Source of the DNA: an uncultured Candidatus Saccharibacteria bacterium
GTDB taxonomy: Bacteria; Patescibacteriota; Minisyncoccia; 2-02-FULL-40-12
Direction of reading: 5' to 3'
Length of the DNA: 38,925 nucleotides
NCBI GenBank assembly: GCA_964361105.1
Contig: CAYHZG010000002.1
Span: 1-38,925, forward strand
Shown: positions 8,718 through 23,414 of the stretch, piece after piece
How positions within the stretch are numbered: position 1 is the stretch's first letter
Layout of the letters: each line of letters begins with the position of its first letter
The notes under the pieces: generated by a model
Database searches by the model: none
What the model was told of the DNA's origin: nothing
What the model saw: the letters and a program-made list of their open reading frames with translations, nothing else
Made by a program: the position numbers and the translations under genes

Positions 8718-10205
8718 ATGATTACGGCCCCAAAAGAAACGGACTTGGAAAAAAAACTGAAAGAAATGCGGCGACGAGAGCTTAAAGAAAGGGGTATTGA
8801 ACCAAGACCTCCTGGCCCGTCTTCTCAAGAAAAAACCTCAACCAAAGAAACAAAATTGGGAATAATAAAACTTGAGGCTAGCAAATTAAATCAATTTGAA
8901 AAAGAAATTAAGAATCTGACTGACCTTAAAAATAAATTTTCGAAAATAGCCACTACCGAAATACTCGAAGTCCTTTTCGCCGGGACTTTATCTAGCCGGG
9001 CTTCGGATATCCACTTTGAACCAGAAGAAGAAGGGGTTAGATTAAGACTCAGGATAGATGGCGTCCTTCAGGATATCTTTAATCTTGAGAAAAAGGACTA
9101 CCCCTCAGTTTTAAACCGGATTAAACTAATGGCCGGGCTCAAGATTAATGTCCATGATGCACCCCAAGACGGACGATTTACCTTAAAAACGGAAAAGGCA
9201 ATGGAGACCCGGCTACGCAACGGAGACCCGGCTACGCACGGGTCCCTCTCCAAGCCAGGTCCCTCTCCAAACGATATTGAAGTCAGGGTTTCGGCCTTGC
9301 CCGGAGCTTTTGGCGAGAGCCTTGTGATGCGGCTACTTGACCCGAGAACTATAAAAAGAGGTTTGGAAGAGCTTGGGTTAAGAAAAGACCTTTTGGAAGA
9401 AATTGAAAAACAGCTTAAAAAAACAACTGGAGCAATTTTAACTACCGGCCCAACTGGTTCGGGAAAAACTACTACCCTTTACGCTTTTGTAAATTTCGTC
9501 AATAAACCAGGAGTAAAAATCATAACCATCGAAGACCCGATTGAATACCATATTCAAGGCATATCTCAAACCCAGGTTAAACCGGAAAAGGGCTATAGTT
9601 TCGCTAATGGTTTAAGATCTATAGTCAGACAAGATCCGGACGCGATCCTGATCGGCGAAATCAGGGACTCGGAAACAGCCGAAATAGCCATGCATGCAGC
9701 TTTAACCGGCCACCTCGTCTTTTCTACAATGCATACCAATGATGCCGCCGGAGTAATCCCTCGCCTGATTGATATCGGCACCAAACCTCAGATTATCGCC
9801 CCGGCCATAAATTTAGCCATGGCCCAGAGACTAGTAAGAAAACTCTGTCAGAAATGCAAGAAAAAAGTCAGGGCCACACCTGAAGAATTAAAAAAAATAA
9901 AAGTGGTCTTTAAAAATCTGCCTCAAAAAGTCAAAGAACCAAGAGTGACTGACGAAGTTAAGATTTTTGAAGCAGGAGAATGCAACCAATGCAACTTCAC
10001 CGGCTATCAGGACAGAATCGGCATATTTGAAGCATTTGTAATTGACGAGGAGTTAGAGAAACTTATTCTCAAGTCTCCGGCCATAAGCGAAGTCAGGGAC
10101 TTAGCCATAAAAAAGGGTATGGTTACTTTGATTCAAGATGCTTACTTAAAAATTTTGGAGGGAATAACTGATTTTAAAGAAGTGGAAAGAGTTTTGGGCG
10201 AGTAA
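8718..10205 (+). CDS. pilB: Type II/IV secretion / type IV pilus assembly ATPase (GspE/PilB family)
   Basis: 495 aa with Walker A 'GPTGSGKTTT', an Asp box, Walker B 'ILIGEIRD', a His box 'TGHLVFSTMHTND' and a tetracysteine 'CQKC...CNQC'. It carries a 24-codon GC-rich insertion at 9199-9270. Confidence 0.88.
   Translation: MITAPKETDLEKKLKEMRRRELKERGIEPRPPGPSSQEKTSTKETKLGIIKLEASKLNQFEKEIKNLTDLKNKFSKIATTEILEVLFAGTLSSRASDIHFEPEEEGVRLRLRIDGVLQDIFNLEKKDYPSVLNRIKLMAGLKINVHDAPQDGRFTLKTEKAMETRLRNGDPATHGSLSKPGPSPNDIEVRVSALPGAFGESLVMRLLDPRTIKRGLEELGLRKDLLEEIEKQLKKTTGAILTTGPTGSGKTTTLYAFVNFVNKPGVKIITIEDPIEYHIQGISQTQVKPEKGYSFANGLRSIVRQDPDAILIGEIRDSETAEIAMHAALTGHLVFSTMHTNDAAGVIPRLIDIGTKPQIIAPAINLAMAQRLVRKLCQKCKKKVRATPEELKKIKVVFKNLPQKVKEPRVTDEVKIFEAGECNQCNFTGYQDRIGIFEAFVIDEELEKLILKSPAISEVRDLAIKKGMVTLIQDAYLKILEGITDFKEVERVLGE
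9199..9270 (+). repeat. Second copy of the 72-nt GC-rich palindromic element, in-frame in the PilB-like gene
   Basis: Near-identical to 4939-5010 but read one frame over. Here it encodes METRLRNGDPATHGSLSKPGPSPN; in gpmI it encodes NGDPAPQRRPGFARVPLQAGSLSK. Confidence 0.9.
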
Positions 10206-15020: not shown

Positions 15021-15138
15021 CCCGTTAGAGACAAAATAAACGTCAATATAAAATAGTGGTGACAAAATCTCTTAACGGGATAAATCAATAACATAATTTG
15101 GCACGGTTGCGGCTTGGCCGCAACCTGTCTCTAACGGG
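15021..15138 (+). repeat. TIR element abutting the PBP1A start codon (divergent, composite copy)
   Basis: CCCGTTAGAGAC (15021-15032) and GTCTCTAACGGG (15127-15138) are 12/12 complementary. An internal half-site TCTCTTAACGGG lies at 15068-15079. A GC hairpin GGTTGCGGC-TTG-GCCGCAACC lies at 15105-15125. The element is flanked by ATGAAT on the left and ATGAAA on the right. Confidence 0.75.
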
Positions 15139-17232
15139 ATGAAAACAAAGAAAGGGGGCGACACTAATTCACTGACCAAGTTGCTGATTGTGTTTTTGAT
15201 TTGGCTAGTAGTTTTGGGGATAATAGGTTTCTTGGTTGCCTTTGCCTATCTGGCTCCCCAGATTCCTGACCCTCAAAGCATTATTACTAGACGCGTTAGT
15301 GAGTCAACTAAAATCTTTGACCGCGATGGCAAGATAACTTTGTTTAACGTTCATGGTGATGAAAAAAGAACCATTGTTCAGATGGAAGAAATTTCTGACT
15401 ACGTAAAGAGGGCGGTAATCACTGCTGAAGATGATAATTTTTACAGCCACCGGGGTTTAGATCTAAAAGGAGTAATCAGGGCGGTTTTTGTCAATATTAA
15501 AGCCAGGGATCCATTTTCCCAGGGCGGTTCAACCATAACCCAACAACTGGTCCGAAATTCACTACTCGGCGTTCAGAAAGCTTATTCTAGAAAATTAAAA
15601 GAAGTAATCCTGGCTCTCCAGGTTGAACAAAAATTTGATAAGGACCGGATTCTCTGGATGTATCTAAACCAAATTCCCTTTGGCTCGAATATTTTTGGAA
15701 TTGAAGAGGCGGCTAAAGATTACTTCGGAAAACCAGCCAGAGAACTTATCCTAAACGAATCGGCAGTTTTAGCTGCTTTAATTAAGGCGCCGAGTTACTA
15801 CTCGCCTTATGGTTCTCATAAGGATGAACTGCTGAAAAGAAAAGATTTGATTTTGGAAAGAATGTTTAAACTTGAGTTGATAAGCGAAGGAGAATTTAAT
15901 CAAGCAAAAAATGAAGAGCTAAAACTTGCTTCTCCGACTAATGGCGGAATCCTGGCCCCTCATTTTGTAATGATGGTTCGGGAATACTTGGTTGAAAAAT
16001 ACGGCGAGGACTTGGTTCAAAATGGTGGACTAAAAGTTTATACGACTTTGGACTGGGAAATGCAACAAAAGGCCGAAGAGATTGTCCAAAAGTATGCCGA
16101 TAGAAACGAGGAACTGTTTAAAGCCGGGAATGCGGCCTTAGTGGCTCTTGGCCCCAAAAGCGGAGATATATTGGCCCTGGTCGGCTCAAGAAACTATTTT
16201 GATATTGAAAAAGAAGGAAACTTTAACGTCATCACTGCTTTTAGGCAACCGGGTTCGGCTTTCAAGCCAATAGTTTATTCGGTTGCTTTAGATAACGGTT
16301 TAACTGACAAAACAATCTTATTTGACGCGAAAACAGAATTCAATCCCTACTGTTCTCCTGATGGGACCCAAGAAAAAGATCAATTTGATCTTGAATGTTA
16401 TCACCCCCAAAACTCTGATGAAAAATTCAGGGGAGCAGTGACCCTAAGGCAGGCCCTGGGCAGCTCTTTAAACATACCTTCAGTCAAAATCCTTTACCTG
16501 GCTGGAATCAAAGAATCGCTTAAAAGGGCAGGCGATCTGGGAATAAAATTCTTAGGAGACACTAAAGATTTTGGATTGTCCCTGGTTTTGGGCGGCGGCG
16601 ACGTTCGGCCTCTTGATTTAGTGGCGGCCTATGGTGTTCTCGCCAACGATGGCATCTATAATGAGTCGGTTTTTATTCTTAAAGTCGAGGACTCGGAAGG
16701 AAAAATAATTGAGGAGTTTAGTCCTGACCCCCAAAGAAGGGTGGCCGAACAAACAGCCAGAATGATCAATGATATTTTATCGGATAATTCAGCCAGAGCC
16801 CTGCTTTTTGGATTAAATAGTACTCTATATATTTCGTCTCATCAGGTGGCGGTAAAGACCGGAACAACTCAAAAGTTCCGCGATGCTTGGACCATTGGCT
16901 ACACCCCGTCCTTAGCCGTCGGGGTCTGGGTAGGCAATAATGACAATGCTGAAATGACCCGCGAAGGAGGCGGCATTTCGGCTGGAGCGCCGATCTGGAG
17001 AGAATTTATAACGGAGGTGCTAAAAAACCAACCAGATGAAGAGTTTCCAAAACCAGAACCAGTCTTTATCGATAAAATAATGCTGAATGGAAATTACACT
17101 GGCGAAGACGGGCAGCTCCACACTATTTTACACTATATAGACAAAAACGACCCTCGGGGCTCGGTCCCATCTAATCCTGAATCTGACCCGCAATACAATC
17201 ACTGGGAGTGGTCAGTAAAAAATGGTTTTTAA
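15139..17232 (+). CDS. Bifunctional class A penicillin-binding protein (glycosyltransferase/transpeptidase, PBP1A type)
   Basis: 697 aa with GT51 motifs 'EDDNFYSHRGLD', 'GGSTITQQL' and 'RKLKE', and transpeptidase motifs 'SAFKP', 'SLN' and 'KTGTT'. Confidence 0.92.
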   Translation: MKTKKGGDTNSLTKLLIVFLIWLVVLGIIGFLVAFAYLAPQIPDPQSIITRRVSESTKIFDRDGKITLFNVHGDEKRTIVQMEEISDYVKRAVITAEDDNFYSHRGLDLKGVIRAVFVNIKARDPFSQGGSTITQQLVRNSLLGVQKAYSRKLKEVILALQVEQKFDKDRILWMYLNQIPFGSNIFGIEEAAKDYFGKPARELILNESAVLAALIKAPSYYSPYGSHKDELLKRKDLILERMFKLELISEGEFNQAKNEELKLASPTNGGILAPHFVMMVREYLVEKYGEDLVQNGGLKVYTTLDWEMQQKAEEIVQKYADRNEELFKAGNAALVALGPKSGDILALVGSRNYFDIEKEGNFNVITAFRQPGSAFKPIVYSVALDNGLTDKTILFDAKTEFNPYCSPDGTQEKDQFDLECYHPQNSDEKFRGAVTLRQALGSSLNIPSVKILYLAGIKESLKRAGDLGIKFLGDTKDFGLSLVLGGGDVRPLDLVAAYGVLANDGIYNESVFILKVEDSEGKIIEEFSPDPQRRVAEQTARMINDILSDNSARALLFGLNSTLYISSHQVAVKTGTTQKFRDAWTIGYTPSLAVGVWVGNNDNAEMTREGGGISAGAPIWREFITEVLKNQPDEEFPKPEPVFIDKIMLNGNYTGEDGQLHTILHYIDKNDPRGSVPSNPESDPQYNHWEWSVKNGF

Positions 17233-18293: not shown

Positions 18294-18359
18294 CCCATTA
18301 GAAATCCGACTCGCCTTTGGCGAGTCGGCAAAAATCTCTGATTTTTTATTTCTAACGGG
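18294..18359 (-). repeat. 66-nt TIR element between the dnaN stop and the FemAB start
   Basis: 65/66 identical to 23349-23414 in the opposite orientation. Arms are CCCGTTAGAAAT and ATTTCTAATGGG. Internal hairpin CCGACTCGCC-AAAG-GCGAGTCGG at 18306-18328. ATGGAT flanks both sides. Confidence 0.9.
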
Positions 18360-21358: not shown

Positions 21359-21694
21359 ATGTCTTTACCAAGAAAATATTGTTTGTCCAGCAAATCTGAG
21401 ATTGAAGGAGTTTTTAAAAAGGGAAAGTATCTGAACTCTGAGTTGTTTTCCATAAAATTTTCCCCAAATAGTACTAATTTCAGCAGATTGGCAGTAATCG
21501 TCGGCAAAAAGAGCTCAAAGAAATCGGTTTTAAGGAATAGAATCAAAAGATTGGTGAGTGAAATTATACGGTTGAATTACTCAAGGATTAAACCCGGTTA
21601 TAATATCGTTTTAATAGTTAAATCTCGGGCCATAAATGAGGAATACAGAGATTTAAAAGAAGCTTTAGTTAAAAGATTGAGTGAAATTGGCTAA
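21359..21694 (+). CDS. rnpA: Ribonuclease P protein component
   Basis: 111-aa basic protein in the conserved position after rpmH, containing 'NRIKRLVSEIIR'. Confidence 0.88.
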   Translation: MSLPRKYCLSSKSEIEGVFKKGKYLNSELFSIKFSPNSTNFSRLAVIVGKKSSKKSVLRNRIKRLVSEIIRLNYSRIKPGYNIVLIVKSRAINEEYRDLKEALVKRLSEIG

Positions 21695-21921
21695 TGAAAA
21701 CGTTAACTATTGGTCTGATAAAACTATATCAAAGTACTTTTTCGCCTAATCACGGCCTTGAATTTTTTGGTTTTTTGACCGGTTGCCGGTTTTACCCTTC
21801 CTGTTCCGAGTATTCAATTCAGGCGATAAATAAGCACGGCCTGATAAGGGGCCTTTTTAAATCAATCGTAAGGATTTTAAAGTGCAATCCATGGTCAAGA
21901 GGCGGAGTTGATTTACCATGA
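21694..21921 (+). CDS. yidD: Membrane protein insertion efficiency factor YidD
   Basis: 75 aa with 'CRFYPSCSEYSIQAINKHG' and 'LKCNPWSRGGVD'. TGA stop at 21919-21921. Confidence 0.92.
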   Translation: MKTLTIGLIKLYQSTFSPNHGLEFFGFLTGCRFYPSCSEYSIQAINKHGLIRGLFKSIVRILKCNPWSRGGVDLP

Positions 21922-22063
21922 CCCAGTAGTAGAAATTCGGCAGGTTTTTAGCCATGTCGTTGTAATCTACTGGGAGCAGATTAATAATAATTTTTGTTAA
22001 TTTTTGGCAATATCTAGTTTTATAAAACCAAACTAAGACATATGCCGAATTTTCACTACTGGG
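21922..22063 (-). mobile_element. 142-bp ORF-less (MITE-like) derivative of the GIY-YIG cassette, inserted in the yidD/yidC ATGA junction
   Basis: TIRs CCCAGTAGTAGAAATTCGGCA (21922-21942) and TGCCGAATTTTCACTACTGGG (22043-22063) are 19/21 complementary. They have the same two end variants (GTAGTAGAAATTCG and GTAGTGAAAATTCG) as 1440-1753, but inverted. Direct ATGA at 21918-21921 and 22064-22067. Confidence 0.75.
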
Positions 22064-22858
22064 ATGACTGGATTATTTAACTCAATTTTATACATTCCGT
22101 TTTTCAATCTTCTTGTTTTTTTGTATAACACCGTTGCTTTTCACGATTTTGGCTTGGCCATAATCTTACTGACTCTGGTTATTAGGTTAGTTCTTAGCCC
22201 CTTGTCTATTAAGACATTTAAATCACAAAAGATTTTAAGCGAGCTTCAACCAAAGATTAAAGAAATTCAAGAGAAATTCAAAAATGATCCTCAAAAACAA
22301 ACCCAGCAGATTATGGAAACATATAAACAGTACAAGGCCAACCCGTTTTCGGGATGCCTGCCCTTATTAATTCAACTCCCGATTTTAATAGCTCTTTACC
22401 AGGTCTCACTCGCTGGTTTTGAAAAAAATTCACTCTCGGCTTTATACAGCTTTGTTAAGAATCCCGAGTTTTTAAATCAGACATCTTTAGGGTTTATTGA
22501 TTTGACTAAAAGAAGTGTTTTTCTTTCGGTATTTGCCGGCGTTAGTCAATTTTTACAAACTAAGCTAAGCCTCAATTTCCAGAAGAATCCCGCCCTTCAA
22601 AAATCTCCCAAAACGACAGCGATTCCGCAACGAGCCGTAAGCGGCTCGGCGGAACCTTCGACGAGCAATCCCATCGCTTCAATGAACCAACAAATGTTGT
22701 ATTTTTTGCCCATTATCACTATAATTATTTCGATGAGTTTTCCAGCTGGTCTGCCGCTTTATTGGATAGCCACAACTTTGTTTTCGGTTCTAGAACAGGT
22801 ATACATTAATAAGACATATGCAAAACCAAATCGAAAACCTGATTTCTCAAACCGTTAA
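22064..22858 (+). CDS. yidC: Membrane protein insertase YidC (short, Gram-positive-like form)
   Basis: 264 aa with 'GCLPLLIQLPILIALY' and 'PAGLPLYWIATTLFSVLEQ'. Confidence 0.92.
   Translation: MTGLFNSILYIPFFNLLVFLYNTVAFHDFGLAIILLTLVIRLVLSPLSIKTFKSQKILSELQPKIKEIQEKFKNDPQKQTQQIMETYKQYKANPFSGCLPLLIQLPILIALYQVSLAGFEKNSLSALYSFVKNPEFLNQTSLGFIDLTKRSVFLSVFAGVSQFLQTKLSLNFQKNPALQKSPKTTAIPQRAVSGSAEPSTSNPIASMNQQMLYFLPIITIIISMSFPAGLPLYWIATTLFSVLEQVYINKTYAKPNRKPDFSNR
22623..22654. repeat. GC-rich hairpin inside the yidC coding sequence
   Basis: TTCCGC-aa-CGAGCCG-TAAG-CGGCTCG-GCGGAA forms a 13-bp interrupted stem. It encodes part of the hydrophilic stretch 'IPQRAVSGSAEPS'. Confidence 0.7.
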
Positions 22859-23348: not shown

Positions 23349-23414
23349 CCCGTTAGAAATAAAAAATCAGAGATTTTTGCCGACTCGCCAGAGGCGAGTC
23401 GGATTTCTAATGGG
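23349..23414 (+). repeat. 66-nt TIR element abutting the flippase start codon
   Basis: Arms CCCGTTAGAAAT (23349-23360) and ATTTCTAATGGG (23403-23414). Hairpin CCGACTCGCC-AGAG-GCGAGTCGG at 23380-23402. Flanked by ATGGAT at 23343-23348 and 23415-23420. Confidence 0.9.

Follow-up and report, generated by a model that had tools for sequence, protein, structure and literature searches.

The stretch of DNA analysed here (38,925 nt, hereafter the window) contains two neighboring forward-strand genes, yidD (21694-21921) and yidC (22064-22858), whose products match YidD (Pfam E=7e-26) and YidC/60KD_IMP (Pfam E=2e-51), respectively. Between them lies a 142-nt segment (21922-22063, forward strand) flanked by direct copies of ATGA, so that the junction reads …GATTTACCATGA / CCCAGTAGTAGAAATTCGGCA…(142 nt)…TGCCGAATTTTCACTACTGGG / ATGACTGGATT…. 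The left ATGA (21918-21921, forward strand) contains the yidD stop codon (TGA, 21919-21921), and the right ATGA (22064-22067, forward strand) provides the working yidC start codon (ATG, 22064-22066). Since the duplication leaves one copy as the yidD stop and the other as the yidC start, the insertion is tolerated. The ATG within the left copy (21918-21920), formerly the start of yidC, now opens a three-codon open reading frame (ORF; ATG ACC CAG TAG TAG).

The segment is bounded by terminal inverted repeats (TIRs) of 21 nt. The left TIR (21922-21942, forward strand) is CCCAGTAGTAGAAATTCGGCA, the AG variant, and the reverse complement of the right TIR (22043-22063, reverse strand) is CCCAGTAGTGAAAATTCGGCA, the GA variant; the two match at 19 of 21 positions, which none of 100 shuffles reproduced. 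TIRs of this length and complementarity flanked by direct ATGA, a real AG/GA difference between the arms, and the lack of an internal ORF (none of 40 aa or more between 21922 and 22063) had all been described in a first-pass annotation made from the sequence alone, and all stand. The internal terminus-like motif proposed there exists as well, at a different position: CTACTGGG is found at 21967-21974 (forward strand) and not at 21976-21983. This octamer repeats the one at the right end of the element and is able to pair with the left terminus. As RNA, the element region folds into a single long hairpin (-56.5 kcal/mol, z = -5.1). No Rfam family matched the element at the gathering score, and hits with E up to 10 were limited to chance-level microRNAs and IRESs. 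A terminator scan of the element returned none, and a promoter scan returned one weak promoter-like match, fewer than expected from shuffles.

Comparison of the yidD-yidC junction across relatives, gathered via YidC homologues and one metagenome scan, established that the segment is an insertion accompanied by a 4-bp duplication. A close relative from the same groundwater site (L147) has 85% DNA identity to the window over 1.26 kb, and its YidC shows 97% identity across residues 1-116. Its junction is uninterrupted (CCATGACTGG; reading GATCTACCATGACTGGATTATTT), and its alignment to the window shows a single clean gap of 146 nt, i.e., the 142-nt element plus one ATGA. Another pair of relatives (L121/L124, YidC 83% identical) also carries an uninterrupted CCATGACT overlap with a single ATGA, and this overlap is what the nearest relatives most often have (L125, L127, L130, L132, L134, L148, L167, L174). 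Removing the element had been said to restore a stop/start overlap, and genomes lacking the element indeed display this overlap. The same start codon is occupied in other relatives. L120 (YidC 79% identical) has a diverged relative of the element between ATGA copies at the yidC start, with ends CCCAGTAATACAACTTCCAA and, on the other arm, CCCAGTATATCAACTTCCAA, for which L122 is the empty counterpart, while L123/L129 (YidC 71% identical) carry a 121-123-nt CCCGTTAGAGACA-type element with ATGAG flanks at the yidD/yidC junction. The yidC start codon has therefore been hit repeatedly across relatives. More distant Patescibacteria have many other inserts in the yidD-yidC spacer (L126, L128, L159, L160, L170, L158, L176-L179, L192-L197), including unrelated hairpins of 60-250 nt and arrays of 8-15 copies of the 8-nt tandem repeat ACCACTTA, and the junction is a general insertion hot spot. 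Next to it, the rnpA/yidD junction of L120 (972-1130) holds another TIR family (CCCCCACACCAAACAAGGAT…ATCCTTGTTATGGTGTGGGGG) where relatives have an ATGA overlap, and the yidD start of L120 is a GTG at the edge of this insert.

The ends of the element recur elsewhere in the window. Exactly four instances of a 14-nt core, GTAGTRRAAATTCG, are present in the 38.9 kb (chance expectation 0.00), at both ends of 21922-22063 and at both ends of an ORF-bearing cassette (1440-1753, forward strand; TIRs at 1440-1459 and 1734-1753) flanked by TATG (1436-1439 and 1754-1757). The cassette encodes a GIY-YIG protein (Pfam GIY-YIG E=1e-15) on the forward strand from 1447 (GTG) or 1468 (ATG) to 1734, and the next gene starts with an ATG at 1755, 20 nt beyond the nuclease stop. 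Common ends with this cassette had been proposed initially, and are upheld both by the core count and by dozens of intermediate members (see below). The 142-nt segment thus combines TIRs, a target duplication, small size and lack of coding capacity, dispersed copies, and an ORF-bearing partner with the same ends, all of which are features of MITEs. Empty sites, TIR significance, and intermediates together support the initial proposal of a MITE-like, non-autonomous relative inserted with an ATGA duplication in a stop/start overlap. We consider it highly probable that the segment is a non-autonomous TIR element (MITE) inserted in the yidD/yidC ATGA overlap, from a Patescibacteria start-codon family that also includes GIY-YIG cassettes.

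To describe this family, species-representative genomes were scanned for the exact pattern CCMRGTAGTRRAAATTCGRC, which yielded at least 118 stretches; because the census relied on an exact TIR pattern, part of the conservation seen at the ends reflects this selection. Among the matches listed, paired hits were nearly all from Patescibacteria (Parcubacteria, Portnoybacteria, Nealsonbacteria, and others), and we take isolated single hits in unrelated bacteria to be at about chance level, by our own estimate. End pairing gave 62 elements among these matches, namely 60 ORF-less copies, the window MITE, and the window cassette. Short TIR-bounded elements, which the first-pass annotation had only from the window, are thus present as at least 60 ORF-less paired copies in at least 27 Patescibacteria assemblies, before unrelated genes. 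Their lengths among the matches listed range from 67 to 155 nt and fall into two classes (67-78 nt and 105-155 nt), and one genome (LBYG01) holds at least ten ORF-less copies and an intact cassette. Nested or tandem members were also seen (L090, 1356-1504; L078, right flank; L113, 3270 onwards) and are consistent with repeated activity.

Family members are associated with start codons. Flanks follow the organization tATG / element / tATG with nearly invariant T-A-T-G (once 14 cases, mostly non-ATG or ambiguous, are left out), from which the ATGA of the window element is one base off. After in silico excision, 43 of the 62 listed copies (~70%) adjoined the first codon of ORFs that are 60 or more codons long and have a short upstream in-frame extension, compared to ~11% for TATG sites drawn at random from that DNA, and several further copies fell just below these thresholds. 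No Shine-Dalgarno (SD)-like signal was detected in the element flanks, and an SD-like motif precedes only 2 of the 33 window genes.

Cassettes of ~310-330 bp, each with one ~88-aa GIY-YIG nuclease, were identified in five organisms (the window, L056, L104, L113, and L204), and the same ends and TATG-type flanks surround those in L056, L104, L113, and L204-L223, the latter being one locus across many samples. Identical nucleases (P0159/P0163) were considered as signs of recent jumps and rejected, as all 20 places correspond to one locus in many samples. Changes in cassette ends are paired (GAAAATGCGAC with GTCGCATTTC; CCAGGAAGT with ACTTCCTGG), and through such compensatory changes the two ends stay matched. 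Homologues of the nuclease formed 951 clusters at E <= 1e-10, the best 120 of which show 73-83% identity and lengths of 87-146 aa (87-105 aa in all but four). At least 55 of these best 120 start with MPGSENS(T/I)AIMF, where MPGSENS is encoded by the flanking ATG together with the left TIR (CCA GGT AGT GAA AAT TCG), in frame with the nuclease. The nuclease gene has thus captured the start codon of its host gene, and its stop lies 20 nt ahead of the host ATG in all loci examined. The window cassette is a GTG-start variant (VKIRPAIMF), and the cysteine desulfurase gene upstream ends in a TAG that overlaps this GTG (1447).

Across 30 homologues, Y4, Y6, R27, H31, and E63 are invariant, and the nuclease ORF is under strong purifying selection. 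For an AlphaFold model of the protein (pLDDT 88), the best structural match is UPF0213 BH0048, followed by the structure-specific nuclease domain of Slx1 (TMq 0.6-0.68); I-TevI matches only weakly. The 88-aa protein is single-domain and lacks a separate sequence-specific DNA-binding domain; as the sole ORF of the element, with a UPF0213/Slx1-like fold, it leaves no DDE, HUH, serine, tyrosine, or Cas1 transposase there. Within the window cassette, 1450-1475, which covers the ATG of the ORF, can pair with ORF-internal 1553-1578 (88% complementary). The latter encodes the invariant EHNRGLNF motif. Pairing would mask the ATG, and a compensatory synonymous change in L104 within these paired stretches suggests translational self-control. 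No TIRs were found around distant GIY-YIG genes (30-45% identity), some of which lie in or beside tRNA genes: 35-45% identical genes were observed in such positions in L063 (5700-6150), L018 (4400-4800), and L049 (near 3705-3938). In L063 the GIY-YIG ORF is between duplicated 5′ parts of a CAT-anticodon tRNA, with a breakpoint directly after CTCATA, the reverse complement of the TATG target of the TIR family.

The terminal stem of the family has an unusual and conserved defect. All 20 bp are paired in every copy examined, barring positions 10-11, which always comprise one G·T and one A·C in either order and are never Watson-Crick, even though the search pattern permitted perfect pairs there. 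The AG/GA asymmetry between arms is therefore a conserved two-base bubble. Either strand has one mismatch of each kind at these positions, which yields no G·U versus A·C asymmetry that would separate RNA-level from DNA-level selection. The AG and GA variants are swapped in 6 of 45 copies. In the window element, this swap was the sole basis on which the element had initially been read as inverted. That orientation is not established: four swapped ORF-less copies (L019, L054, L058, L088) retain the usual interior polarity relative to the gene, and the nuclease ORF of a swapped cassette (L113) is still co-directional with its target gene. The swap is a subfamily trait rather than an orientation marker. 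An HMM built on interiors only separates forward from reverse for family members, but for the window element it gives -2.7 versus no hit and so assigns no polarity. Of 37 long elements, 15 (the window element and L019 among them) have terminus-like motifs on the sense strand, and two elements have them on the antisense strand. In most long MITEs (L002, L016, L024, L028, L029, L037, L046, L104, and others), the left TIR is immediately followed by a GC-rich hairpin, whose sequence varies and covaries, and then by an A-run; on the opposite strand this arrangement reads as an intrinsic terminator. Through selection, such an opposite-strand terminator could account for the constant co-orientation of elements with the gene. 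The window element does not have this hairpin.

How ORF-less copies originate is indicated by L009, a cassette in which ATGTTCCAT… and …TNQGSRLLKRMLKEYFY are kept and the ~190 nt between them are missing, leaving a MITE-sized element. ORF-less copies can hence arise by internal deletion, and the initial description of the 142-nt element as a cassette derivative is valid for the family. For this particular copy the interior gives no sign of such an origin: it has no detectable similarity to four cassette interiors (p > 0.2), so that an alignment offers no deletion breakpoints, nor to the interiors of other MITEs. The ends of the window element also differ from those of the window cassette (CCCAG versus CCAGG, CGGC versus CGAC, and the AG/GA swap), which makes mobilization by that particular cassette uncertain.

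Taken together, a cassette inserts at a start codon; in many members the first copy of the host ATG then starts the nuclease ORF, which is read through the left TIR, and the second copy restores the host gene. The association of nuclease and ends points to the GIY-YIG nuclease as the mobility enzyme, which would probably act on a hairpin or cruciform formed by the ends and could move ORF-less copies such as 21922-22063 in trans. As a single joint reading, which we hold tentatively and at somewhat less than even probability, the family would represent a previously unrecognized class of mobile elements, with a ~310-bp autonomous form encoding only an Slx1-like GIY-YIG nuclease, integration at start codons, and MITE offspring. 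This joint reading includes a nuclease acting on the imperfect hairpin or cruciform, a first ATG given over to the nuclease via the TIR, and a hairpin that returns the second ATG to the vicinity of its native leader and keeps the host gene alive. To our knowledge, such an autonomous form would be smaller than any described insertion sequence. Against the nuclease as the mobility enzyme, a nuclease alone does not account for integration and the 4-bp duplication, a 4-base target alone does not account for the strict start-codon specificity, and the duplication of the window copy is ATGA instead of TATG.

The main alternative is that the hairpin elements are primary and are moved by a host enzyme, an absent transposase, or recombination, with the GIY-YIG gene a passenger, comparable to the homing-endonuclease genes that invade introns, and not the mover of the MITE. 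ORF-less copies outnumber cassettes by about 60 to 5 among the matches listed, long MITEs have the GC hairpin with its A-run and internal end-like motifs that cassettes lack, and the interior of the window MITE is unrelated to cassettes, all of which fit a passenger gene. Unrelated hairpin families (CCCGTTAGA, CCCCCACACC) also occupy equivalent junctions without any ORF, and we know of no strand-transfer activity in GIY-YIG nucleases. However, the 39-kb window contains no transposase gene, the cassette has no content between its ends other than the nuclease ORF, which in many lineages is joined in frame with the TIR and the host ATG and is under strong purifying selection, and L009 is a cassette decaying into a MITE. 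On balance we regard a passenger role as unlikely, and favor the nuclease as the mobility enzyme.

At the level of the mRNA, the 142-nt hairpin is predicted to set the yidD UGA beside the yidC AUG, and yidC initiation or coupling may thereby survive in a host that hardly uses SD sites. Element lengths among those listed show no mod-3 preference of the kind expected from in-frame read-through, and peptides initiated at the upstream ATG (MPGSENST…) end at variable interior positions with no frame preference, such that a simple termination-reinitiation geometry is not conserved. In-frame read-through and termination-reinitiation at a fixed geometry are both ruled out on these grounds. A further option is that the element is removed or skipped, either by intron-like excision between the ATG copies or by a ribosome hop from the first AUG to the second, as known from T4 gene 60 and the mitochondrial byp elements, making the DNA insertion phenotypically silent. 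Identical take-off and landing triplets around a strong hairpin, the TAG TAG three codons beyond the first ATG, and the family-wide start-codon position would all suit such a process, but the element matches no ribozyme or intron family, its flanks form no bulge-helix-bulge motif, and ordinary initiation at the second AUG suffices, leaving this option very improbable. Least probable of all is a host regulatory RNA native to the yidD-yidC spacer (attenuator, thermometer, or MifM-like control) with a secondary likeness to cassette ends, a reading that the empty sites largely refute: the very stable hairpin directly ahead of the yidC AUG and the regulation of Bacillus yidC paralogues by upstream leader structures speak for it, yet the closest relatives have a bare ATGA overlap instead of the segment, the segment is flanked by direct repeats, its repeat family precedes unrelated genes in at least 27 genomes, and Rfam offers no match.

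The 39-kb window contains seven small inserted elements in total, five of them at start codons. Two 66-nt CCCGTTAGAAAT…ATTTCTAATGGG elements (18294-18359, reverse strand, and 23349-23414, forward strand) show 99% identity over 80 nt. Each is bordered by a duplicated ATGGAT and keeps the reading frame (22 codons), one at the start of a FemAB-family gene and the other at that of a polysaccharide-synthesis/flippase gene. Their family is widespread among the fetched Patescibacteria loci; its 9-nt tips are conserved, and its inner arms vary but are self-complementary. A third CCCGTTAGA-type hairpin element, composite and 118 nt long (15021-15138), directly precedes the ATG of a 697-aa ORF (15139-17232), with flanks ATGAAT/…/ATGAAA and a right half nearly identical to the yidD/yidC element of L123/L129. 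Finally, two GC-rich palindromic elements of 72 nt (4939-5010 and 9199-9270), 96% identical and read in different frames, are inserted in frame inside an iPGM gene (4625-6241) and a T2SS/T4P ATPase gene (8718-10205), in the manner of Rickettsia palindromic elements. The CCCGTTAGA elements and the TIR family both occur at ATG(A/G) starts, and at the family level have only CCC..GT.TAGA in common, the CCCGTTAGA inner arms being variable; no ORF-bearing CCCGTTAGA element was seen. A superfamily link between the two is tentative, with indirect support from the use of the same junction in L123/L129, and unrelated-looking hairpin families, CCCGTTAGA included, may occupy the same start-codon niche.

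Full-text literature searches turned up no published description of the family. Bacterial MITEs such as Correia/NEMIS of Neisseria, MITEAba12, Nezha, and Chunjie are likewise small, lack ORFs, and combine TIRs and a short target duplication with many hairpin-forming copies, ends common with an ORF-bearing partner, and filled and empty sites between relatives. Here, however, the partner encodes a GIY-YIG nuclease in place of a DDE, HUH, serine, or tyrosine transposase, insertion occurs at a start codon, (T)ATG or ATGA, in a fixed polarity with respect to the gene, and stem positions 10-11 are never complementary. REPIN-RAYT systems also pair many short hairpin copies with an enzyme gene flanked by the same repeats in inverted orientation, but that gene is a RAYT (Y1 HUH) rather than a GIY-YIG nuclease, whereas the present family is distinguished by target duplications, start-codon sites rather than extragenic space, and a Patescibacteria host. 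The MIRUs of Mycobacterium tuberculosis and Neisseria REP2 are repeats located exactly between operon genes (PMC3184786). As here, the repeat ends provide, or overlap with, stop and start codons of the adjoining genes, and downstream translation is preserved (PMC3184786). Unlike the present element, MIRUs are direct tandem units with small coupled ORFs, REP2 has its own promoter, RBS, and ATG, and both are without these TIRs, the ATG duplication, and a nuclease-bearing partner (PMC3184786).

GIY-YIG homing endonucleases (I-TevI, Seg proteins) have the same catalytic domain with conserved residues and are likewise selfish genes between host genes, with which they are co-transcribed. In contrast, the nuclease described here is ~88 aa long, has a fold nearer to Slx1/UPF0213 than to I-TevI, and is accompanied by TIRs and target duplications. 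Since insertions are found before unrelated genes with TIRs and TATG duplications, the spread is transposition-like and not allele-specific homing. Hairpin or TIR transposons that are harmless because their target duplication regenerates the interrupted signal are known as eukaryotic introners and as the mitochondrial byp elements of Magnusiomyces. The regenerated signal is a splice site or matched codons in these elements, and a stop and a start codon here; they also belong to a different domain of life, and we see no evidence for splicing or ribosome hopping in the present family. The element therefore differs from MITEs, REPIN-RAYT, MIRUs, REP2, and homing genes in its partner enzyme, its target, and a duplication that regenerates stop and start codons, and the family behind the MITE may represent a new class. 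Within the same bacterial radiation, short non-intron insertions encoding GIY-YIG proteins have been reported in CPR rRNA genes (PMC11270868). These are located in rRNA genes, and neither inverted repeats nor start codons are mentioned in that study (PMC11270868).

The family is apparently large and undescribed in the ultra-small Patescibacteria. If the nuclease is the mobility enzyme, a transposase-free GIY-YIG mechanism would be added to the short list of routes used by DNA transposons, and the family may define the smallest autonomous element known in bacteria. Targeting of start codons combined with capture of the host initiation signal is a parasitic strategy of which we know no previous description. 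These loci also offer a natural system to study how ribosomes initiate beside or across a large hairpin in SD-poor bacteria. For annotation, such elements are a source of spurious N-terminal extensions (MPGSENS…), wrongly called starts, and seeming spacers within operons in thousands of Patescibacteria metagenome-assembled genomes.
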